Shown here in pieces: positions 2,912-18,332 of a DNA stretch of 24,012 nt. Below the pieces are notes generated by a model. The model was given only the letters and a program-made list of their open reading frames with translations. It ran no database searches and had not been told where the DNA came from. Position 1 is the stretch's first letter. Each line of letters begins with the position of its first letter. Position numbers and translations under genes: made by a program. Origin of the DNA: a virus (taxonomy: Duplodnaviria; Heunggongvirae; Uroviricota; Caudoviricetes); the IMG/VR virus record IMGVR_UViG_2675903504_000004, positions 1-24,012 of that record. One strand, written 5' to 3'.

Positions 2912-3486
2912 ACCGGGCCTCCGGTTGTATCGCCGCCTTTCAGGACGCCAGTATGCTGATGCGCATCAACCACGATCCCGTTAGAACTCATCGCTCCGCC
3001 GCCCTGGGTAACGCCACCATTGATCACCACTTCGCTGTTAATGCGCGTGCGGTCAGCCTCCAGTACAAACTCACTGGTTTTCATGGTGATGTTGTCAGCA
3101 GCCTCAATGACCATTGATTTGATGCCCCTGACATACCAGCGCCCGGTGGCGGGTTCGTATTCAAACCAGCCACCGTCAGGATGTTCTGTCACGCAGGCGT
3201 CCGCCGACGTCGACGGTGGTGCGAACTGATTCGAATAGACAGCGGGCAGCGCAAAGGCGGTTTCCAGATTGCCGCCCAGACTCAGCAGCACCACCTGCTC
3301 ACCTTCCGATGGTCGCCACCATGTACGGGCATTCCCGGCACGCAGCGTCAGCCAGCTGATCCAGTTGGTTTCAAGCTCGCCCGTTTTCACCCGGCAAAGC
3401 CAGTTTTCCCTGTCCACTTCGGTGACTACCCCTGTGCGGATCAGGTTGGTGATAAGGCGCATGATTTCGGTTAATTGTGCGTTCAT
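2908..3486 (-). CDS. V: Baseplate spike protein gpV
   Basis: 192-aa protein MNAQLTEIMRLITNLIRTG... with ...WWRPSEGEQVVLLSLGG..., similar to P2 gpV; synteny S-V-W. Confidence 0.9.
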   Translation of the reverse strand: MNAQLTEIMRLITNLIRTGVVTEVDRENWLCRVKTGELETNWISWLTLRAGNARTWWRPSEGEQVVLLSLGGNLETAFALPAVYSNQFAPPSTSADACVTEHPDGGWFEYEPATGRWYVRGIKSMVIEAADNITMKTSEFVLEADRTRINSEVVINGGVTQGGGAMSSNGIVVDAHQHTGVLKGGDTTGGPV

Positions 3487-9504: not shown

Positions 9505-11271
9505 ATGAACACCACACTGACACCCGCAGATCTCGATCCCCGTCGGCAGGCCATGCTGCTGTACTTTCAGGGATACCGCGTAGCCCGCATTGCTGAAATG
9601 CTGGGCGAGAAAGTTGCAACCGTTCACAGCTGGAAAAAACGCGACAAGTGGGGTGACTATGGGCCACTGGATCAGATGCAGCTCACCACCGCCGCACGCT
9701 ACTGCCAGCTCATTATGAAGGAGCACAAAGAAGGGAAAGATTTCAAAGAGATTGACCTGCTGGCGCGCCAGTCTGAGCGCCACGCGCGGATCGGCAAGTT
9801 TAACAATGGCGGCAACGAAGCCGACTTAAACCCTAACGTCGCCAACCGCAACAAAGGCCCGCGCCGTCAGCCGGAAAAAAATGTCTTCACCGATGAACAG
9901 ATTGAGAAGCTGGAAGAAATCTTCCATTCCTCCATGTTCAACTACCAGCGCCACTGGTGGGAAGCCGGAAAAACCAACCGCATCCGCAACCTGCTGAAGT
10001 CACGCCAGATCGGCGCGACCTTTTACTTTGCCCGTGAAGCCCTGATTGACGCTCTGCTTACCGGACGTAACCAGATTTTCCTTTCCGCCAGCAAGGCACA
10101 GGCCCACGTCTTTAAGCAGTACATCATCGACTTCGCCAAAGAAGTGGAAGTGGAGCTGAAAGGCGATCCGATGGTGCTTCCCAACGGGGCCACACTGTAT
10201 TTCCTCGGCACCAATGCCCGCACGGCCCAGAGTTACCACGGCAACCTGTATCTGGATGAATATTTCTGGATACCGAAATTCCAGGAGCTGCGCAAAGTGG
10301 CTTCCGGTATGGCTATTCACAAAAAATGGCGACAAACCTATTTTTCCACGCCATCCAGCCTGACACACAGTGCTTATCCGTTCTGGTCCGGTGCGCTATT
10401 CAACCGTGGGCGCAATAAAGCCGACAAGGTGGACATCGACCTGTCCCACAGCAATCTGGCTCCAGGCCTGCTGTGTGCAGACGGGCAATACCGCCAGATA
10501 GTCACCGTGGAAGATGCGGTGCGCGGCGGCTGTAACCTGTTCGACCTTGACCAGTTGCGCATGGAATACAGCCCGGACGAATACCAGAACCTGCTGATGT
10601 GTGAATTCGTGGACGATCTCGCGTCCGTGTTCCCGCTCAGCGAGCTGCAGGCGTGCATGGTGGACAGCTGGGAAGTCTGGACCGACTTTCATGCACTGGC
10701 CCTGCGCCCGTTTGGCTGGCGCGAAGTGTGGATCGGTTATGACCCGGCAAAAGGTACGCAAAACGGCGACAGCGCCGGGTGCGTGGTGGTGGCTCCGCCA
10801 GCCGTGCCGGGCGGTAAGTTCCGCATTCTTGAGCGTCACCAGTGGCGCGGGATGGACTTCCGTGCCCAGGCGGACGCCATCAAAAAACTGACTGAACAGT
10901 ACAACGTGACCTATATCGGTATCGACTCGACAGGTGTCGGTCACGGGGTTTATGAGAACGTAAAAGCGTTCTTTCCTGCCGTCCGGGAGTTTGTCTACAA
11001 CCCCAACGTTAAAAACGCCCTGGTACTCAAGGCCTACGACATTATCAGCCACCGCCGTCTGGAGTTTGACGCCGGACACACCGACATTGCGCAGTCATTC
11101 ATGGCAATCCGTCGCGCAACCACCGCCAGTGGCAACCGCCCGACCTATGAAGCCAGCCGCAGCGAAGAAGCCAGCCACGCCGATCTGGCCTGGGCAACGA
11201 TGCACGCACTGTTTAACGAACCGCTGCAGGGCGAGTCCGCCAATACCAGCAATATTGTGGAGATTTTTTGA
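9505..11271 (+). CDS. P: Terminase large (ATPase) subunit gpP
   Basis: 588-aa protein of P2 gpP size, in the expected divergent position and co-oriented with Q; assigned by length, synteny and overall resemblance to P2 gpP. Confidence 0.95.
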   Translation: MNTTLTPADLDPRRQAMLLYFQGYRVARIAEMLGEKVATVHSWKKRDKWGDYGPLDQMQLTTAARYCQLIMKEHKEGKDFKEIDLLARQSERHARIGKFNNGGNEADLNPNVANRNKGPRRQPEKNVFTDEQIEKLEEIFHSSMFNYQRHWWEAGKTNRIRNLLKSRQIGATFYFAREALIDALLTGRNQIFLSASKAQAHVFKQYIIDFAKEVEVELKGDPMVLPNGATLYFLGTNARTAQSYHGNLYLDEYFWIPKFQELRKVASGMAIHKKWRQTYFSTPSSLTHSAYPFWSGALFNRGRNKADKVDIDLSHSNLAPGLLCADGQYRQIVTVEDAVRGGCNLFDLDQLRMEYSPDEYQNLLMCEFVDDLASVFPLSELQACMVDSWEVWTDFHALALRPFGWREVWIGYDPAKGTQNGDSAGCVVVAPPAVPGGKFRILERHQWRGMDFRAQADAIKKLTEQYNVTYIGIDSTGVGHGVYENVKAFFPAVREFVYNPNVKNALVLKAYDIISHRRLEFDAGHTDIAQSFMAIRRATTASGNRPTYEASRSEEASHADLAWATMHALFNEPLQGESANTSNIVEIF

Positions 11272-12302
11272 TGGGAAAGAGTAAGAAAAACCGCACTGCG
11301 GCGACGAATCAGATCCAGCATAAAAACCAAACTTCAGCCGAAGCATTCAGCTTCGGCGATCCCGTTCCTGTTCTGGACCGCCGAGAATTACTGGACTATG
11401 TGGAATGCGTACAGATGGACCGTTGGTATGAGCCGCCCGTCAGCTTTGACGGACTGGCGCGCACCTTCCGCGCTGCCGTGCATCACAGTTCCCCGATTGC
11501 AGTAAAGTGCAACATTCTGACCAGTACCTATATCCCTCATCCTTTGCTCAGCCAGCAGGCTTTTTCGCGTTTTGTGCAGGACTATCTGGTATTTGGCAAC
11601 GCCTATCTGGAGAAACGCACGAACCGCTTCGGTGAAGTGATCGCCCTTGAACCTGCGCTGGCAAAATACACCCGACGCGGATTAGACCTGGATACCTACT
11701 GGTTTGTGCAATACGGTATGACAACCCAGCCGTATCAGTTCACGAAAGGCAGCATTTTTCATCTGATGGAACCGGATATTAATCAGGAGATCTACGGTCT
11801 GCCCGGCTATCTTTCTGCCATTCCGTCAGCCCTGCTCAACGAGTCCGCCACGCTGTTCCGTCGCAAGTATTACATTAACGGCAGTCATGCGGGCTTTATC
11901 ATGTACATGACCGATGCCGCGCAAAACCAGGAGGATGTGAACAACCTCCGCAATGCGATGAAAAGCGCCAAAGGTCCAGGCAACTTCCGCAACCTGTTTA
12001 TGTACTCGCCTAACGGCAAAAAGGACGGGCTTCAGATCATCCCATTGTCAGAAGTCGCGGCGAAGGATGAATTTCTTAATATCAAGAACGTGAGTCGGGA
12101 TGACATGATGGCAGCGCACCGCGTGCCGCCTCAGATGATGGGGATTATGCCTAATAATGTTGGGGGGTTTGGGGATGTGGAGAAGGCTAGTCGTGTTTTT
12201 GTTCGGAACGAGCTGATGCCTCTACAAAAAAGATTCCAAGAAGTAAATGAATACTTTGACGGGAACATAATCAGCTTTGAAGAATACAAACTGACCATCT
12301 AA
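11271..12302 (+). CDS. Q: Portal protein gpQ
   Basis: 343-aa protein; ATG at 11271 overlaps the P stop (TGATG); the ORF-track start 11268 is TTG. Size and position match P2 gpQ. Confidence 0.95.
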   Translation: MGKSKKNRTAATNQIQHKNQTSAEAFSFGDPVPVLDRRELLDYVECVQMDRWYEPPVSFDGLARTFRAAVHHSSPIAVKCNILTSTYIPHPLLSQQAFSRFVQDYLVFGNAYLEKRTNRFGEVIALEPALAKYTRRGLDLDTYWFVQYGMTTQPYQFTKGSIFHLMEPDINQEIYGLPGYLSAIPSALLNESATLFRRKYYINGSHAGFIMYMTDAAQNQEDVNNLRNAMKSAKGPGNFRNLFMYSPNGKKDGLQIIPLSEVAAKDEFLNIKNVSRDDMMAAHRVPPQMMGIMPNNVGGFGDVEKASRVFVRNELMPLQKRFQEVNEYFDGNIISFEEYKLTI

Positions 12303-12317
12303 AATAAATAACAAAAA

Positions 12318-12337
12318 AGAGGGTTCCCCCTCTTTTA
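12318..12337. terminator. Bidirectional rho-independent terminator between convergent Q and the cargo ORF
   Basis: AGAGGG-TTCC-CCCTCT hairpin flanked by an A-run upstream and a T-run downstream, in the 39-bp gap between the Q stop and the stop of the minus-strand ORF. Confidence 0.6.
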
Positions 12338-12341
12338 TATA

Positions 12342-14108
12342 TTAATTATTATCGTATAACTCCTGAATTTTTGCTGGATTAGCAAAAAACCTTGCAGGAT
12401 AAGCATTTGGATAATTATCTTCGATATAATTTTCTGTCCTAGCTATTAATGCTGCTAAATTAGCAGTGATTTGTGCTGAATCAGGAGCAAGCTGAATGGT
12501 ACTATTCTGTAAATCTGACACCATATTCAACAGCACTGAAGCATAATATCTATTACCATGAGTTATTATTAAATGACGGCGACTATGCGTTGATTTATCT
12601 GTAGCTGCTAAAGTTGAGCTAATAGCACGTTCTATCACACGAAAATGGTTAACAGCATTTATTAACTTGATACCACTTAATCGCGGATTGAAAATTGTTC
12701 TATATAATGACCCTTCAAAATTTTCAAAAAACCTACCACGATTAGATTTTAAAGTTGCAACTATAGTATTATTTTTACTTAAGCAAGCTAGAGCATTCAA
12801 AGCCTCATCGAGATCAATTACCTTGGCGTTAGACTGTAAATAATCCTCATCGGTTCGCAATAATTGGTATTGATACCCTTCAAGCACAAGCTCTCTCGCC
12901 AGTCTATGCTGATCGGGTTGTTGTGAAGCAAAATCTCTTCCTAAAACTCTATTCTGGAAATTATTAGCTCTGGTTATTGCATTGGCATTGAGATCATTTA
13001 CATCATTATTAATTTCAATAAAACGAACAGGGACTTTAACTTGATAAATTCTATCGCCTAGCACATCCATAACACTGCCTAAACTACTCACAGTTTGCGC
13101 GCCGTTGATCACACTCACATCTTTAAAATCGAAAACCCCTCTTTCAGTGCCTGCAGCTGCGTTTCTTCTGTGAGGAATTAACTCGTTCACTAGTAACGTA
13201 ATACCGTTATTGTAAAACCAAAACATTTCTGGATTATCAATTGCAGTTTTTTTTATTTCTTCGTTAACATCTGTCTTACCAAGCATATTTCTTATGTTTT
13301 TCGTAAAAAGGCGGGTTCCATATTGTTTCCACCAATTCCCAACCTGGTCCCCAGCTAAAGTTCCATAAAATGCTCTGTAAGGTTCATTAATAAACCCATA
13401 GCGTTCAACTTCTACGCCATCCAAATCAATTTGACCTCTTGAGCCAGTCTGCAACCAATGGACTAAATCCTCTGATGAAATCAAATGAACTTGAAACCCC
13501 CATTCTTCTTTCGGTGATTCTGTCGGGGTAAACGACGCTTCATTTAATTCACGTTGCCACTCTTGCATATCACGTAAAATATCTTCTGAGGCACCTTTTT
13601 TCCCTGTGTGAGTCATAGCGAAGATAAATTTATAATCAAATGAATTAAGAGCTGCGCTTATATCTGAACTCTTATCTTGAAGAATCTGGTCAAAAAGTTC
13701 ATATCGTTCATTCTGAAGTTTTTCACAAGCATCCTTGAAGCACACAAAATCAGGTCTGCTCCAAGTACCATTTCCAGCCTGATTAAATTTGGACTGAACG
13801 ACTACAACAATTTTTTCACTATGATTTATGACTATGCCATCAATGCCTCCATCCTCAGAACTGTCGCATACAGACTCACCTGCATGCTTTTCATCAACAC
13901 CACCAAGTTGATACATCGTAAACGCCGCCAGAGCCCTACTTGCCATTTTAATATTGTAATCTTGTTGACTGGGTTGGCACTCTCGCTTATGAACATAGTC
14001 TTCAAACCTTTCTCTCAAAACACTACCAAGCCTTAGAGCTATAACTTGCGCCGTCGCCGCTGCAGCTACAGCGTTATCCTCAACTCGGAGATCTACAACG
14101 AATGCCAT
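12342..14108 (-). CDS. Cargo protein, 588 aa: N-terminal PD-(D/E)xK-like nuclease motif plus large C-terminal region with AIPR-like (abortive infection) features; candidate anti-phage defence gene
   Basis: AT-rich ORF between portal Q and the cos-like site. Start at ATG 14108 (AAGGA at about 7 nt; ORF-track start 14135 is TTG). N-terminal ...EDGGIDGIVINHSEKIVVVVQSKF... fits a D...(E/Q)xK nuclease signature. Central ...VSVINGAQTVSSLG... is recalled as AIPR-family-like (from memory, unverified). No counterpart in the P2 core gene set. Confidence 0.55.
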   Translation of the reverse strand: MAFVVDLRVEDNAVAAAATAQVIALRLGSVLRERFEDYVHKRECQPSQQDYNIKMASRALAAFTMYQLGGVDEKHAGESVCDSSEDGGIDGIVINHSEKIVVVVQSKFNQAGNGTWSRPDFVCFKDACEKLQNERYELFDQILQDKSSDISAALNSFDYKFIFAMTHTGKKGASEDILRDMQEWQRELNEASFTPTESPKEEWGFQVHLISSEDLVHWLQTGSRGQIDLDGVEVERYGFINEPYRAFYGTLAGDQVGNWWKQYGTRLFTKNIRNMLGKTDVNEEIKKTAIDNPEMFWFYNNGITLLVNELIPHRRNAAAGTERGVFDFKDVSVINGAQTVSSLGSVMDVLGDRIYQVKVPVRFIEINNDVNDLNANAITRANNFQNRVLGRDFASQQPDQHRLARELVLEGYQYQLLRTDEDYLQSNAKVIDLDEALNALACLSKNNTIVATLKSNRGRFFENFEGSLYRTIFNPRLSGIKLINAVNHFRVIERAISSTLAATDKSTHSRRHLIITHGNRYYASVLLNMVSDLQNSTIQLAPDSAQITANLAALIARTENYIEDNYPNAYPARFFANPAKIQELYDNN

Positions 14109-14289
14109 TAATTTTTCCTTATAGAATATGTACAACGTTAGCAGTGATTAAAAGGTTACTCGTTAAGCGGAAATTGTACTACAACATTCTACTAAATATG
14201 GATATATCAATGAGTAAGAACTCATCTTTGCTAACTCACATACATTGTTAAAAATACTTAGCTTCGCTGTTCACCCCGTCGCCGCGCGC

Positions 14290-14308
14290 TCGTATCCCCG
14301 CCACGCCT
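14290..14308 (-). other. Candidate cos (cohesive-end) site of the P2/186 type
   Basis: Minus strand reads GGCGTGGCGGGGATACGAG, close to the remembered P2 (GGCGAGGCGGGGAAAGCAC) and 186 cohesive-end sequences. It lies in a short GC-rich island between two AT-rich cargo genes and is oriented toward Q, as in P2. Confidence 0.5.
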
Positions 14309-14356
14309 GCCCGCTTTGTGTAGTGGTTTTCATGCACCTGCATGACATAAGCAAAA

Positions 14357-14376
14357 GCCCGCCAGCTCTGGCGGGC
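14357..14376 (-). terminator. Rho-independent terminator downstream of the HNH-domain ORF
   Basis: Perfect GC-rich inverted repeat GCCCGCCAG-CT-CTGGCGGGC, followed on the minus strand by TTTTGC. Confidence 0.55.
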
Positions 14377-14489
14377 ATCAGCAAAAACGATCCTCAAACG
14401 ATCATGCGATTTCATGCGGCATAGACATGCGTTGGCAAAAATGTACGAAATACTCAGCTTATAGGAAATGGTCTTTTTCCAACCTCCAG

Positions 14490-15209
14490 TTAGCCAAAGC
14501 AGAAACCAATATTGCAATTTGAAACTCCACAGTTGTGAAATTGATGTGGACCTACTCTTAGCTTGTGTTCGTCTCCTACAATCCGAGTCCCCTTAACCAA
14601 CATATCTAATCTTTCCACAATCAATCTTTCAGGCACATCAACTTTAATAATTAAACGAGGACCTTTCCTTTTTTCTATAATAGTTATTCTAGGACCGACA
14701 ACCTGAACATCCCAATGCCTTGCACTACAAACCCACTCATTCTTAATTAATTCAAGATTAACAATACCTTGACTATCGTAAAATTTACCCGAAATAAGAA
14801 AAGCATTATTTTCTTTTTCAATGGTTAACAATGGCTCATTTTGAAACATTATTGGTACAGTACAGGATTCAAACGTCGCACCACCAAATATTATTGTTGG
14901 ATGCCTATCAGAAAAGTCCAATATATCTGCCACATTCCCTTTTTGTAAGGCTGCAGGAGATTCCATTGCTTTAATTATTTTCTCTTTAGAGTAAAGACGT
15001 TTCGTTACTTTCGCATGGCACGTAGGACAAAGTAGTGCTATTGCATTTGGAGAGTGCTCCTTTGCATCAGCGTATGTGGGAATTACATGCTCATACTCAA
15101 CAATGGGAGAAGCACAAACAACGCAACCGAAGCCACAGCGCTGCCTTACCTCCAGTTTTACAGGTTCAGGAATTGTTCTAGATAACCCATGCTTGTTAAT
15201 AGTTGTCAT
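14490..15209 (-). CDS. HNH endonuclease-domain protein with uncharacterised ~170-aa C-terminal region; cargo gene
   Basis: 239-aa AT-rich ORF; N-terminal ...RQRCGFGCVVCASPIVEYEHVIPTYADAKEHSPNAIALLCPTCHAKV... shows the Cys pairs and His/Asn/His pattern of an HNH zinc-finger nuclease. ATG at 15209 with AAGGTAAGG upstream; own terminator downstream. Confidence 0.65.
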   Translation of the reverse strand: MTTINKHGLSRTIPEPVKLEVRQRCGFGCVVCASPIVEYEHVIPTYADAKEHSPNAIALLCPTCHAKVTKRLYSKEKIIKAMESPAALQKGNVADILDFSDRHPTIIFGGATFESCTVPIMFQNEPLLTIEKENNAFLISGKFYDSQGIVNLELIKNEWVCSARHWDVQVVGPRITIIEKRKGPRLIIKVDVPERLIVERLDMLVKGTRIVGDEHKLRVGPHQFHNCGVSNCNIGFCFG

Positions 15210-15245
15210 AACCTTACCTTAAAACTTCGAGAAACCTTTTATATA

Positions 15246-15260
15246 TTGATACTATATCAA
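15246..15260. promoter_or_regulatory. Palindrome TTGATA-CTA-TATCAA upstream of the HNH ORF (candidate operator)
   Basis: Perfect 6-3-6 inverted repeat about 40 bp upstream of the HNH start, in an AT-rich promoter-like region. Confidence 0.35.
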
Positions 15261-15331
15261 CTAACGCCTCGCACAGCTCGTTGTTCAACCTTGCTGACGC
15301 CAGAAGCAAGTTCAGACGCCAGCAACGTTTC

Positions 15332-15565
15332 TTAATGCAGCCAGCTGTCGTCTTCCCACACCTTCTGCATAATTTTCATCACTTGCTTCCTTTCTTCGTC
15401 CAGTTGCAGTCCGGTCAGTTCCACACCGTTAGAGCTACCTTTGCGGATGCGAATTACCGTTTTTGGATATAGGGGGCGCAGATTGCGGTAAAGCTCGGAT
15501 TCAAGGGCGTCCAGGGTAGACTGGCTAATCTTCTGCTCTTTATCGATCATTATTTCAATGCGCAT
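15332..15565 (-). CDS. dinI: DinI-family protein
   Basis: 77-aa protein MRIEIMIDK...TLDALESEL...VIRIRKGSSNGVELTG...DEERKQVMKIMQKVWEDDSW aligns with E. coli DinI as remembered. Start at ATG 15565 with GAGGTGA upstream; the ORF-track start 15637 is an upstream extension. Confidence 0.8.
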   Translation of the reverse strand: MRIEIMIDKEQKISQSTLDALESELYRNLRPLYPKTVIRIRKGSSNGVELTGLQLDEERKQVMKIMQKVWEDDSWLH

Positions 15566-15575
15566 AAAAGTCACC

Positions 15576-15764
15576 TCAGCTGATGACATCCATTGAGCGG
15601 TTGTATTCGTGGGTTCTGATTTTTGCCATGAGTTCATCTGTCAGTTCAGAAACCCACTGCAAAGCCAGCCCCTTCTCTTCATCACTACACTCACTAGCCG
15701 CTACAAGTTTAAGAAAAAAATCAATGCGCTGGAGCTTCAAAGACTCCAAAAAATAGTCCTGCAT
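15576..15764 (-). CDS. Small SOS-regulated protein (62 aa), first gene of the LexA-controlled operon; possible Tum-like antirepressor
   Basis: ATG at 15764 with TAGGAGGAAAG upstream and the LexA box about 45 bp further upstream. The ORF-track start 15866 would place the LexA box inside the coding region. Function inferred only from position. Confidence 0.5.
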   Translation of the reverse strand: MQDYFLESLKLQRIDFFLKLVAASECSDEEKGLALQWVSELTDELMAKIRTHEYNRSMDVIS

Positions 15765-15807
15765 CTTTCCTCCTATGACACCACAAGCAACACTGTATGT
15801 ATAACCA

Positions 15808-15823
15808 CTGTTTATATTTACAG
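15808..15823 (-). promoter_or_regulatory. LexA (SOS) box CTGT-N8-ACAG with overlapping promoter
   Basis: CCACTGTTTATATTTACAGTAT matches the LexA consensus TACTGTATATATATACAGTA in the CTGT/ACAG arms and AT-rich centre. It overlaps a TATACT/TTTACA promoter-like region on the minus strand. Confidence 0.75.
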
Positions 15824-15917
15824 TATATAATAATCTTACTGATGTAAAACGTTTTTTTACGTTCATCAGCCTGATATGCCTGGTATTATTAAGAGCACGA
15901 ATTGTTAACCCGCGTAA

Positions 15918-18332
15918 TTAATACAGGTTTCGCCACTTATCATCTTCCTGCAAACGCTGGTTCCGATAGAAGATACGCAGGCCTGCTCCTGACGGAATAC
16001 TGCCGCCGCGAAGGAGTAAATCGACCTCTTTCTCGCTGCCATCAAATCCTCTGGACTTCAGTTCATAGACGAGCTGCTGTCGCTGATGGTCTGTAATTCG
16101 CTGTTTGTAGTCTTTACGCCGTTTCGGTTTCACCAGGCGTAACCTTGCAGCCAGTTCCCGGCGCTCTTTTTTGCTCATACTGTGCAGGTAATCGTGCAAC
16201 TCCTTGTCATCCATGCGGGTAATGTCCGTCCTGGTATCCCCATCAGCTGATTTGTCTTTCCCTTGTTGGTTCAAATTTTCAGCAAGGGGACAGTTATTGC
16301 CACGAGTCCAAGGGGCGCAAGCGCCCTGGTCGGCTGCCGCCTCCTGAACGTCAACGGCCTTACGAACCATTTTCCACTTCACTGCATGAGTGCAGATCTT
16401 GCCCTCTGCAATGGGTGACCAGATGCCATAAATACGAATGCCGTGATCGCCATAGGCGGTCGGCTCTTCGTTGATTTCATAAGCGGTTCTGATCAGGTGA
16501 TATTTGCGGGGAACCAGTACGCCGCCCTGCTTCATGATGTAGGTGGCAAAACAACCAGCATCAGCAGCAGCCAGGATTGCATCAAGGCGCGGGTTATCCA
16601 GTACCGGCGCACCTGCTTTTTTGTCCCCCTGTTGCCTTGCCGCCTGACCAGCCAGCAATCGCAGTTCACGGTAAGCCTGACGCCCCGGAATGCCAAAGAA
16701 GCGGAATTGCTGAACACGATGCAGAGACGCCCAGGCATTAACGTATTCAGCATTATCACGCAGGGATTTCCCCGTTTCCTTGCTGATCTCGCCAGCCAGA
16801 CCACGCCCGTCAATGTTCTTACTGATGTATTTCGCGATGTAGCTTGTTGGCGTACCTTTGCGCGGGTTAATCAACTCAGACTTAAAGCGCGGCCCAGTGT
16901 TATTGCCCAGCTCCTCGCGGTCTTCACGGATGGCAAACTTACGCAGTAATACAGTGATGGCGCGGCGGTCTTTTTTGCGCATAAAACACAACAGGTGCCA
17001 GTGAACTGTACCGTCATGATGCGGCTCAGCCACCCGCACGCCATACCAGCGCAATCCGGCTTTGTGCATCGCCTTACGAAATGCAGCAAACATGCCGACC
17101 AGGTAATCACTACTTTGTCTTACCGTCGCATTTGTCCAGGTTGGGTTGGGCCTGCCGTTATTTAGCGTGGAATGGAAACGTGACGGACAGGTGATGGTGT
17201 AGAAAACGGCACAGTCACTGCGCATTTCTGCGATAAGCTCCAGACCTTTAACACAGGCCATCATCTCATTGCGGCGATGCGCCGGGTTGCTGCTGCTGGC
17301 GTTTACCACATCTTCCATATCCAGCGTGTCACCGTCTTCGTTCACCAGTTCATGAGAACGGAAAAACTCCAGCGACTTACGGCGCTGCTCACGTTTATGC
17401 ATCACGGCTTCATAGCTGACATAGGGAGATGCTTTTTTGCTGACCAGACAGACAGCACGCAACTGCTCTTCCCGCCATTCGCAACGCATCTTCCATAATT
17501 TCCTATGCCACCAGTCGGCGCACAGCATACGCGCCAGCGAACCCGGAATGAGTTCATAGGGCACGGGTTTACGGCGGTTTCTTTTCCGACGGAGTTGCTC
17601 AAACGCAGGCGGGATGACATCCAGTCGCAGGGTTTCTGCTGCCACCTTTTCCCATGTCTTGCGGATTTCTTCTGGCTTAACATCATCGGTGGCGTACAAA
17701 TCACCACAAGCGGCATCAAGACACATGCTCATATGCGCAGCGACAAGAGTAGACAGGCGTTTCACCTGATCCTGACTCATTTCAGGCAGGATCAGCAGGC
17801 CGTCCAGCCCTTCATGGCTTGCCATAAAGCGAAAAGAAGTGGATAGCTGACTCTCGCGTACATGCTCCAGTCGTTCCAGACATGGCTTAATCGTCTCACG
17901 CAAATAGCGGGAATAAGCCTTTGGCCTGCCCAGGCTGCTGAAGTATTCAATACGTTGCATCAGCGGCTTGCTGATATGGGAAGGCTGGGCGCTGACATCT
18001 GCCAGAATGACCATGTCTGGGTTAAAACGCTGCTGCTCATGCGCCAGCTTTGCCCGACTAATGAGCTTATCCTGCTCCATTTCGCGCTGGACAGGATCAC
18101 GGGATTCATTAAAGAAATAACGCTCCCAGACCTGATCACTCAGTGCCTCACGGCGCAGCAGTTCCTGCTCGTTATCGGCAGCGTACAGAGTGATCAGGTT
18201 TGAAAGCGCAGAAACCGGCGCAACTTCCGCCGGGTCCAGATAAGGGTTAATGGCCTTTTTCGGGCTGTTCCATGAGAACGATGCGGCAGCCTCGTTAAAG
18301 CCGCAGCAGTTGTTCATATCGGCATGGTTCAT
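15918..18332 (-). CDS. A: Replication initiation endonuclease gpA (rolling-circle initiator)
   Basis: 804-aa protein with ...[17 protein letters not shown]... and ...[13 protein letters not shown]..., which match the conserved P2 gpA motifs. Confidence 0.95.

Follow-up and report, generated by a model that had tools for sequence, protein, structure and literature searches.

Two cargo slots on either side of cos in a P2/186-type prophage

The interval between the portal gene and the SOS module of a P2/186-type E. coli prophage was found to be an ordinary case of the known P2 cos-adjacent hotspot, with a modest mechanistic refinement, and the overall picture is therefore unchanged. The DNA analysed, here called the window, is a stretch of 24,012 nucleotides (IMG/VR record IMGVR_UViG_2675903504_000004); its portal, GPA replication protein, DinI and gene order are those of a P2/186-type prophage. 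We consider it likely, with a probability of roughly 0.8, that the interval is the gpA-gpQ hotspot with a cos of the Fels-2/SEN8 type, that its two cargo slots are arranged around a 148-bp core constrained by terminase, that cargoes are re-paired through the cos cut, and that the right-hand cargo is read through from the SOS operon.

The gpA-gpQ locus of P2-like phages has been described as a defence hotspot next to cos (Rousset et al. 2022, PMC9122126; Moura de Sousa et al. 2026, PMC13586616). The interval is bounded by portal gpQ and replication protein gpA in a P2-like prophage, at the same cos-adjacent locus, and it showed variable content and the same rapid turnover. Both of its cargo proteins (WP_061350925 and WP_000207842) are already present, with other partners, in Table S5A of Rousset et al. 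(PMC9122126). These papers treat one hotspot 'adjacent to cos', whereas two slots belonging to separate linkage blocks were found here. No explicit 'both sides of cos' account was found in the papers searched, and one may exist elsewhere.

The cos core and its flanking cassettes

The cohesive end was confidently placed at positions 14289-14307. Read on the minus strand (14307 to 14289), its 19 nt (GGCGTGGCGGGGATACGAG) exactly reproduced the 19-nt cos annotated for Salmonella phage SEN8; the first 12 nt of GGCGTGGCGGGGATACGAG matched the cohesive end of phage 186. This end is part of a conserved cos core (14283..14430, 148 bp, 0.561 GC) with breakpoints on both sides, which consists of 6 nt to the left of the cohesive end, the 19 nt themselves and a 123-bp right arm. 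The right arm contains a hairpin and five GCATG/CATGC motifs, the motif being enriched 23-fold. The boundaries of the core were unchanged across 84 phage records from four genera, and its identity was 86-96% among Escherichia, Klebsiella, Salmonella and Yersinia phages irrespective of cargo. In a survey of 5,426 complete E. coli genomes, the core was found, with these boundaries, in 1,252; approximately 23% of complete E. coli genomes hold Fels-2/186-type prophages.

A GC-rich hairpin followed by a U-tract is located inside the core (14357-14376, minus strand; dG -20.1 kcal/mol, z -4.0). It was retained in relatives without the HNH gene described below, and where relatives have no right cargo it was the first canonical terminator downstream of dinI. 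We assign it as the predicted backbone terminator of the tum-dinI(-cargo) transcript; it is part of the cos core, not of the HNH cassette. The region contained 9 terminator-like sites, compared with 3.3 ± 1.6 in shuffled sequences, and no RNA family was detected with Rfam between 11.5 and 16.5 kb (E ≤ 1).

Each side of the core carries one cargo gene. The left slot, from Q to cos, holds an AIPR-family ORF (12342..14108, minus strand, 588 aa, WP_061350925), which is the ATG-start form of a 597-aa mechanical ORF. In the right slot, from cos to dinI, an 830-bp cassette (14431..15260, minus strand) contains an HNH ORF (14490-15209, minus strand, 239 aa, PF01844, WP_000207842). The GC contents of the AIPR and HNH ORFs were 0.380 and 0.381, with a GC3 of 0.28 for both, compared with 0.50-0.56 and a GC3 of 0.57-0.69 for the genes N, O, P, Q and A, and with 50-57% GC for the backbone. 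Both genes are compositionally foreign. The sequence-only reading had described AT-rich genes around a GC-rich cos island, and this description held: the cargo genes on either side of the cos core were at approximately 38% GC, and both hairpin/T-run terminators that it had named were present.

The left cassette begins within the portal gene. Q (plus strand, ending at 12302) was identified by its Phage_portal match, and its 3' end of approximately 17-24 codons (12231..12302) travels with the left cassette: nucleotide homology to relatives with other left cargo stopped at 12230-12252, and the C-terminal tails of the portal proteins were homologous at the protein level yet allele-specific. The last 150 nt of Q had a GC content of 0.40 versus 0.52 for the rest of the gene; in relatives whose left slot is empty, these 150 nt were at 0.49-0.50.

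On the right, the cassette is bordered by a conserved backbone element after dinI (15261..15331, minus strand), which contains the motif GGTTGAACAACGAGC..GCGAGGCGTTAG and was kept in two relatives (L006 and L010) and in phage 186. The border itself varied, being at 15261 in some relatives and at 15322 in others. The element includes a strong hairpin without a U-tract (15287-15329; dG -23.5, z -4.4). No inverted or direct repeats of the kind found at transposon, IS or integron ends bracketed either cassette. A megablast search of a phage collection with the cassette DNA returned nothing similar, the matches being to backbone and cos and covering at most 44% of the query; by protein, the closest AIPR in that collection was that of Aggregatibacter phage S1249, with 35% identity at most.

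Assortment of the cargoes and the cos cut

The two cargo genes were found to assort independently. Among the 5,426 genomes, 9 carried the AIPR allele and 21 the HNH allele, and both occurred together in 2; HNH was missing from 7 of the 9 AIPR carriers, and AIPR from 19 of the 21 HNH carriers. AIPR was paired on its right with HNH, TIR, HEPN or DUF6236, and the left partners of HNH were AIPR, an empty slot, DUF4145, SieB, an 89-aa ORF and a 554-aa ORF. When 10 relatives were sampled evenly, the Q-cos slot was filled in all of them, the cos-dinI slot in 6, and both slots in 6. The left-slot cargo of these relatives included a retron and a DprA-PRTase system, the latter an experimentally validated defence system (PMC9122126). 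The idea of two separately acquired modules, with the cos neighbourhood as a double insertion site, was thus borne out by independent assortment and by relatives in which the slots are filled separately. The Q-cos slot, in which the reference phages P2 and 186 have no cargo, is the main cargo bay of Fels-2/186-type E. coli prophages, and surveys should score left and right slots apart rather than as one 'gene arrangement'.

Alignment with relatives, proposed earlier as a way to map conserved breakpoints, gave sharp ones at 14283 and 14430. Across 20 loci compared, the backbones were 94-100% identical and the cargoes unrelated, and the cassettes began 6 bp to the left and 123 bp to the right of the cohesive end. 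AIPR carriers were approximately 100% identical to the window as far as cos, starting from a point at about 9.5-11 kb that differed between carriers, and 94-98% identical thereafter. For HNH carriers, identity was 99-100% between cos and 16-16.5 kb, and 80-96% to the left of cos. In a SNP map of an 11-sequence alignment, the window followed the AIPR haplotype up to 14282 and the HNH haplotype from 14318; the 35 bp in between (14283-14317) were invariant, except for 14288-14289 in one poorly aligned relative. The right arm of cos showed 0.89 differences where two loci had a right cargo in common (28 pairs), 11.1 where they had a left cargo in common (8 pairs) and 11.5 where they were unrelated (154 pairs), among 20 loci of which half were picked for their cargo and whose pairs are not phylogenetically independent. 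Right-arm SNPs hence track the right cargo and not the left, and the haplotype blocks meet within 35 invariant bp that include the cos cut. Rousset et al. (PMC9122126) speculated that cos ends join in the exchange; the two-block pattern fits this, and blocks meeting within 35 bp of the cut are direct sequence evidence on the idea that cos ends drive cargo exchange.

We propose the following mechanism. The slots are approximately 150 bp apart in the prophage and form the two extreme ends of the packaged linear chromosome. Each cargo is inherited in a block with the backbone of its own side, the blocks meet at the cos cut, and cos cleavage would itself act as one 'crossover'. One exchange elsewhere between co-resident P2-like genomes, combined with cos-to-cos packaging, could then re-pair left and right cargo. 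In its strict form, this model has one bay at each physical end of the virion chromosome, a linkage border exactly at the cos cut, free re-pairing and a right bay wired to the SOS response, and we regard the chances for and against this form as evenly balanced. If it is true, no loci of the phage would be less linked than these cargoes, which 150 bp separate in the prophage, packaging would give combinatorial defence repertoires, and minus-strand cargo of the right bay, such as HNH, would be switched on at induction.

The same pattern could arise by ordinary homologous recombination anchored on the conserved cos core, in which cos cleavage has no special role. No fully invariant stretch is longer than the one that holds the junction (35 bp), and core genes alongside offer homology for a second crossover. 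However, 35 bp is close to the minimum for RecA-dependent exchange, and in 28 of 28 pairs with the same right and different left cargo the 123-bp right arm stayed with the right cargo. A boundary at the physical chromosome end would lead one to expect such a tie between right arm and right cargo, but the tie is not decisive, and since the junction is invariant over 35 bp, the two mechanisms are indistinguishable there. We therefore consider ordinary recombination a minority possibility that deserves to be kept in mind, and favour re-pairing through the cos cut.

Transcription of the cargo genes

The SOS module (15332..15866, minus strand) contains a dinI-like gene (15332-15565, minus strand; Pfam DinI 1.3e-22), a tum-like gene (15576-15764, minus strand; named from the RefSeq annotation of a 99.9% identical prophage) and a LexA box, CTGTTTATATTTACAG, read from the sequence at 15808-15823. 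A LexA box, tum and DinI genes and a terminator just before cos are the features of a 186-type SOS operon, and all of them are present here, with the annotated p95 operon of phage 186 as the model. Upstream of HNH, no sigma-70-like promoter was detected, relaxed thresholds included. The gap between dinI and HNH contained no T-run terminator, and its sole feature was the hairpin without a U-tract. As the 14357-14376 hairpin belongs to the cos core, HNH is placed after dinI and ahead of the backbone terminator, in the same orientation. From this position and the lack of a recognisable promoter, HNH is probably read through from the LexA-controlled tum-dinI operon, for which orf97 of phage 186 offers a precedent, and its unit is probably not independent of the SOS module. 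Having been inserted between dinI and the cos-core terminator, the gene would most likely be co-transcribed with tum-dinI. Two features of this region speak against read-through: a 51-bp AT-rich stretch upstream of HNH may hold a non-canonical promoter, and the hairpin at 15287-15329 could attenuate read-through into HNH.

The left gene is arranged differently, as AIPR is insulated at both sides. An intrinsic terminator between Q and AIPR (12311..12338) has a stem of 9-12 bp with a T-run on each strand, and its dG was -11.8 kcal/mol on the plus and -14 kcal/mol on the minus strand. Because the hairpin has a z of about -3 and a T-run on both strands, the terminator is bidirectional; it serves both the late-operon gene Q on the plus strand and AIPR on the minus strand, and is part of the AIPR cassette. 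At the other end, a 174-bp leader of 33% GC (14109..14282, minus strand), presumed to be the promoter region, abuts the cohesive end. It was the same in AIPR carriers and unrelated in other relatives. A Shine-Dalgarno sequence, AAGGA, precedes the ATG by 9 nt; no sigma-70 promoter was found upstream of AIPR at 9/12, where there were weak 8/12 matches only. The AIPR cassette would thus be transcribed from beside the cohesive end toward Q and would end at the terminator shared with Q.

It had been suggested that this region consists of two transcription units that are independent and have a terminator each. The suggestion stands for AIPR, which is insulated and to which the 12311-12338 terminator belongs. 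It is not fully supported for HNH, for which neither a recognisable promoter nor a T-run terminator after dinI was found, and it does not hold for the 14357-14376 terminator, which lies in the conserved cos core and is independent of the cargo.

The opposite arrangement, a single operon across cos in which tum, dinI, HNH and AIPR are read together from the LexA-controlled promoter in the prophage or circular form, appears improbable. All four genes are on one strand, and neither cargo gene has a canonical promoter at the standard threshold. Nevertheless, the hairpin and U-tract of the cos core separate HNH from AIPR, the cassette-specific leader moves with AIPR, the two genes were found together in 2 of 28 carrier genomes only, and the validated DprA-PRTase system of the left slot occurs beside an empty right slot.

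Cargo proteins and related systems

AIPR is probably an AbiU-like, single-gene candidate abortive-infection protein, as judged from profile matches. The ORF matched Pfam PF10592 at 110.7 bits (cutoff 25; 1.5e-31), PADLOC AbiU at 5.4e-24 over profile positions 125-507 of 537, and PHROG 1841 'Abi alpha-like' at 4.5e-196. The motif DGGIDGIV...VVVVQSK was visible in the protein, with QSK common to the Fels-2 homologue. A search for an N-terminal restriction-endonuclease-like PD-(D/E)xK domain gave a weak match to Pfam Mrr_cat (E 0.12 only), and a sequence search of the PDB gave no match. The cassette is a single gene: its neighbour across cos differed between carriers, and no second gene was found inside it. 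Lactococcal AbiUi, a predicted nuclease, gives resistance alone (PMC13064643); the AIPR protein of the window resembles AbiU in its AIPR domain, its PADLOC match and its single-gene form, and the relation is distant. A single-gene AIPR of the P4 hotspot is among the defence systems validated by Rousset et al. (PMC9122126). The MZA system was considered and rejected, as the protein scored 52.9 bits for MzaE against an equivalog cutoff of 1050 and no MzaABCD partner genes were present.

The HNH protein scored 24.8 bits against PF01844 (cutoff 21.4) and shows the HNH motif, the Zn-binding cysteines and the beta-beta-alpha-metal fold of the superfamily. Its beta-rich C-terminal domain alone had no match in Pfam, and the whole protein had nothing significant in PADLOC and NCBIfam (best PADLOC E 0.0095). 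Homologues were also found by themselves, both in a lambdoid nin region and on Acinetobacter plasmids. The protein belongs to an uncharacterised accessory family (PHROG 6544) found in mobile elements of several kinds. In this prophage it is probably SOS-expressed, and it is a reasonable candidate for a defence role; Cap5, the HNH-SAVED effector of CBASS, and HNH defence nucleases of the McrA type are among the closest known systems.

A single two-component defence system made up of AIPR and HNH and split by cos is very improbable. The genes are adjacent, both are predicted to be of nuclease type, and their GC3 values are equal, but most carriers of either allele lack the other, other partners were found in each case examined, and the HNH homologues mentioned above stand alone. 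It is just as improbable that HNH is a packaging accessory aiding cos cleavage, like the terminase-associated HK97 gp74, for although this nuclease gene directly adjoins cos, it was present in only 21 of the 1,252 genomes that carry this cos core, one and the same large terminase (WP_001098431) occurred with and without it, P2 and 186 lack it, its homologues are found in non-P2 contexts, and its AT-richness marks it as foreign.

Known phages place the two slots in context. Between A and cos, P2 has old-tin and 186 has orf97, which are exclusion genes of a non-essential kind. In P2 and 186, terminators tQ and tW alone lie between cos and the portal gene. According to its annotation, 186 orf97 ('blocks 186 infection') occupies the right slot and is expressed by read-through of the LexA-controlled p95 transcript, which ends at t95b just before cos. 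No homology between Orf97 and the HNH protein was detected, and orf97, unlike HNH, lies on the opposite side of the conserved post-dinI element. Fels-2 of Salmonella LT2 and SEN8 share the cos type of the window and have both slots filled, with other cargo alleles in cassettes without nucleotide similarity. The left slot of Fels-2 contains a distant AIPR-family protein (23% identity), also of PHROG 1841, and its right slot contains a 243-aa ORF between cos and dinI.

Conserved cos core and its two flanking slots

The window represents an E. coli prophage of the P2/186 family, and its interval 12303–15331 was 99.9% identical over the full length to that of strain PSS-11. According to the RefSeq annotation of PSS-11, tail, lysis, and head genes are followed by terminase P (9505–11271, plus strand), portal Q (11268–12302, plus), an AIPR family protein of 588 aa (12342–14108, minus), an HNH endonuclease (14490–15209, minus), a DinI-like protein, a small tum-like ORF, replication endonuclease A (15918–18332, minus), and finally early genes, CI, and integrase. 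Pfam agreed with the annotation for portal, GPA, DinI, AIPR, and HNH, and the 588-aa ORF is the ATG-start version of a 597-aa mechanical ORF. The sequence-only reading had described a GC-rich island with an AT-rich gene on either side, and the composition bore this out. The GC contents of the AIPR and HNH genes were 0.380 and 0.381, against 0.561 for the 148-bp island separating them; the GC3 of both genes was 0.28, as compared with 0.57–0.69 in N, O, P, Q, and A (GC 0.50–0.56).

The cohesive end, read on the minus strand from 14307 to 14289, is GGCGTGGCGGGGATACGAG. It is identical to the annotated 19-nt cos that starts the Salmonella phage SEN8 record, which confirms the earlier cos assignment and places the site exactly; over the first 12 nt, it agrees with the cohesive end of 186 at every position and with that of P2 at 11. 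BLAST comparison with ten related prophages of E. coli and a phage collection delimited a conserved core at 14283–14430, with the same edges in 84 phage records from Escherichia, Klebsiella, Salmonella, and Yersinia (86–96% identity). This core was found in 1,252 of 5,426 complete E. coli genomes. Its Q side consists of the cohesive end plus 6 nt, and its A side, the right arm (14308–14430, 123 bp), carries a hairpin and five GCATG/CATGC motifs, a 23-fold excess over the window average. These motifs may be terminase-binding (cosB-like) sites. The right ends of 186, P2, and SEN8 contain similar TGCAT(G/T) repeats. RefSeq also places an 89-aa "hypothetical protein" (WP_072295564, 14248–14517, minus) across the core, the terminator hairpin, and both cassette edges; its ORF overlaps the HNH stop codon, and in relatives with other cargo its position held either another ORF or no ORF at all. 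This gene call is probably spurious.

Alignment with related prophages mapped the breakpoints to one variable slot on each side of cos: from Q to the core, and from the core to a conserved 70-bp element downstream of dinI. On the left, homology with other alleles stopped at 12230–12252, in the last 17–24 codons of Q, and restarted at 14270–14283. The right slot spans 14431–15260, its end lying at 15321 in some relatives. Both slots were empty in EC23HZZ201, where 142 GC-rich bp replace the AIPR cassette and 9 bp replace the 830-bp HNH cassette.

Several features were observed at the slot edges. The 3′ end of Q (12231–12302, last 17–24 codons) co-varied with the left cargo, each cargo allele having its own homologous but diverged version of the portal C-terminal tail, and the GC content of the last 150 nt of Q was 0.34–0.45 with cargo versus 0.49–0.50 with an empty slot. 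This suggests that left cassettes are transferred among P2-like phages by crossovers within Q. The right boundary of the HNH cassette coincides exactly with a perfect palindrome, TTGATActaTATCAA (15246–15260), that precedes the HNH start codon by 37 bp. This palindrome may represent an operator or a scar of recombination, and no canonical promoter could be fitted to its surroundings. The post-dinI element (15261–15331) contains the motif GGTTGAACAACGAGC..GCGAGGCGTTAG and a hairpin (15287–15329, −23.5 kcal/mol) without a U-tract. As the same motif lies downstream of orf97 in phage 186 (L012, ~3370–3415), the insertion point of orf97 is a third one, located after tum and before the element.

Linkage of the cargo and proposed exchange at cos

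In megablast searches, the AIPR allele was found in 9 genomes and the HNH allele in 21, but both together in only 2. Across cos, AIPR was partnered with HNH, a TIR protein (opposite strand), a HEPN protein, or DUF6236, and HNH with AIPR, an empty slot, DUF4145, SieB, an 89-aa ORF, or a 554-aa ORF. This independent assortment supports the proposal that the two genes are separately acquired modules; the overall observation of cargo on both sides of cos was likewise confirmed.

Identity to the window was computed in 500-bp bins. In AIPR carriers, identity was ~100% up to cos, beginning at ~9.5–11 kb in the different carriers, and 94–98% beyond; HNH carriers were 99–100% identical from cos to ~16–16.5 kb and only 80–96% left of cos. 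Base by base, the window followed the AIPR haplotype through 14282 and the HNH haplotype from 14318 on, and 14283–14317 was invariant among 11 aligned sequences. All three AIPR-only carriers differed from the window at 14318 and several later positions. The left cargo begins only 6 bp past the cohesive end. Differences in the right arm (14308–14430) were then counted for pairs among 20 loci, half of which were picked for their cargo: the pairs, which are not phylogenetically independent, showed a mean of 0.89 differences (range 0–3) when the right cargo was shared and the left different (28 pairs), 11.1 (5–18) when the left was shared and the right different (8 pairs), and 11.5 (4–21) when both differed (154 pairs). 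Therefore, the right arm is fully linked to the right cargo and unlinked from the left cargo, and the block boundary falls within a 35-bp interval that includes the cut site.

The virion chromosome is linear and cut at cos, so that the AIPR cassette forms its extreme left end and the HNH cassette its extreme right end, the two being neighbors only in the circular or integrated form. Vegetative and prophage maps classically differ in this way. One exchange anywhere between two co-resident P2-like genomes would yield a dimer with two cos sites, and packaging from cos to cos would give monomers with the left end of one parent and the right end of the other. Such packaging-based exchange would explain the two haplotype blocks, their meeting at the cut site, and why a repeat search revealed no transposon-like repeats at the cassettes. 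It also agrees with the speculation of Rousset et al. (PMC9122126) that cohesive ends take part in exchange. Ordinary homologous recombination inside the 35 invariant bp is a possible alternative.

Slot occupancy was examined in ten records taken at even steps along the ranking of all 1,260 records containing the core. The left slot was occupied in all ten, and the right slot, and hence both, in six. The empty-right junction was present in 314 genomes and the empty-left junction of the EC23HZZ201 type in 41. These values indicated that double occupancy is the common state in this phage group, and that the Q-cos bay is the main one. Left-slot cargo in the sample included DprA + PRTase (twice), TIR + hypothetical protein, retron St85, a RES protein, a KAP-type NTPase, and a STAS-like protein.

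The DprA and phosphoribosyltransferase pair, a defense system validated by Rousset et al. (PMC9122126), lay in the left slot of the related prophages L024 and L028 (2843–4379), and retron St85 in that of L031 (2384–4432). All left-slot cargo of the sampled E. coli prophages was transcribed from cos to Q; right-slot cargo had either orientation.

Transcription of the AIPR and HNH genes

The two genes had been read as independent units, each bounded by its own terminator. Both hairpin/T-run terminators are present. That at 12311–12338 is flanked by T-runs on both sides, and its folding energy is −12 to −14 kcal/mol whichever strand is considered, which makes it a bidirectional terminator for both Q and AIPR. 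The other (14357–14376, minus; −20.1 kcal/mol, z = −4.0) is followed by UUUUGCUUAU. The AIPR gene has its own leader (174 bp, 33% GC) with an AAGGA ribosome-binding site, and promoter-like matches in its upstream region were weak. Thus, the independence of AIPR was supported: the gene would be insulated by the core hairpin upstream and the cassette-borne bidirectional terminator downstream.

The independence of HNH was not supported, since its hairpin belongs to the conserved core; where the right slot of a relative is empty, dinI is followed by this hairpin as the first canonical terminator. Upstream of HNH, the search for promoter-like sites was negative, and the sole terminator-type feature in the dinI-HNH gap is the strong hairpin lacking a U-tract. 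In phage 186, the annotation of orf97 ("expression from plasmid blocks 186 infection") attributes its expression to partial read-through from p95, a LexA-controlled transcript that ends just before cos. For these reasons, HNH is probably a member of the SOS operon. A perfect LexA box, CTGTTTATATTTACAG (15808–15823), stands at the head of this operon, before the tum-like gene. In relatives, right-slot cargo encoded on the other strand (TIR, a 141-aa ORF, DUF8087, and P2 old-tin) must have its own promoters. A second, imperfect LexA box, CTGTATGTATAACCAC (15792–15807), adjoins the first, and a 96-aa mechanical ORF (15576–15866) runs across both; the RefSeq start of the tum-like gene at 15764 (62 aa) is more plausible.

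Cargo proteins and the gpA-gpQ hotspot

The AIPR protein matched Pfam AIPR (1.5e-31), PADLOC AbiU (5.4e-24), and PHROG 1841, "Abi alpha-like abortive infection" (4.5e-196). Its assignment as MzaE was rejected (52.9 bits against a cutoff of 1050). AbiUi, a predicted nuclease, alone gives resistance in Lactococcus (PMC13064643), and a single-gene AIPR of the P4 hotspot is listed among validated defense systems by Rousset et al. (PMC9122126).

The HNH protein (PHROG 6544, a group without assigned function) belongs to a family of ~240–260 aa conserved over the full length, with members in Citrobacter, Cronobacter, Hafnia, Acinetobacter, Erwinia, Pseudomonas, and others and with invariant C29, C32, H41, H52, and C61. 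In a confident AlphaFold2 model (pLDDT 93.9), residues 92–239 formed an all-beta domain, for which no convincing match was found among solved structures. A role as a packaging factor of the HK97 gp74 type was rejected, as the gene was present in only 21 of the 1,252 elements that share this cos and terminase. Homologs were located in a lambdoid nin region and, beside toxin-antitoxin and AAA_15 genes, on Acinetobacter plasmids. A role of the protein in defense or mobile-element competition is plausible.

The locus is the cos-proximal gpA-gpQ hotspot of P2-like phages, known as one hotspot with very fast turnover (PMC9122126; PMC13586616). The exact AIPR and HNH proteins of the window, WP_061350925 and WP_000207842, are both listed in Table S5A of PMC9122126, each with other partners. 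Fels-2 and SEN8 have both slots filled, like the window, and Fels-2 carries a 23%-identical AIPR family member in the same slot. In contrast, P2 and 186 lack left-slot cargo and carry theirs (old-tin, orf97) on the A side only; these reference phages are atypical of the group's occupancy. Our results refine the known hotspot rather than adding a new kind of element: it is bipartite, and each of its two bays is a linkage block of its own, the boundary between them being the cos cut. In the early region, a PAPS-reductase-domain gene lies between A and DNA adenine methylase in some relatives (L023, 7754–8764) and a DUF3850 gene near the methylase in others (L032, 8995–9148); these positions are further small variable spots.
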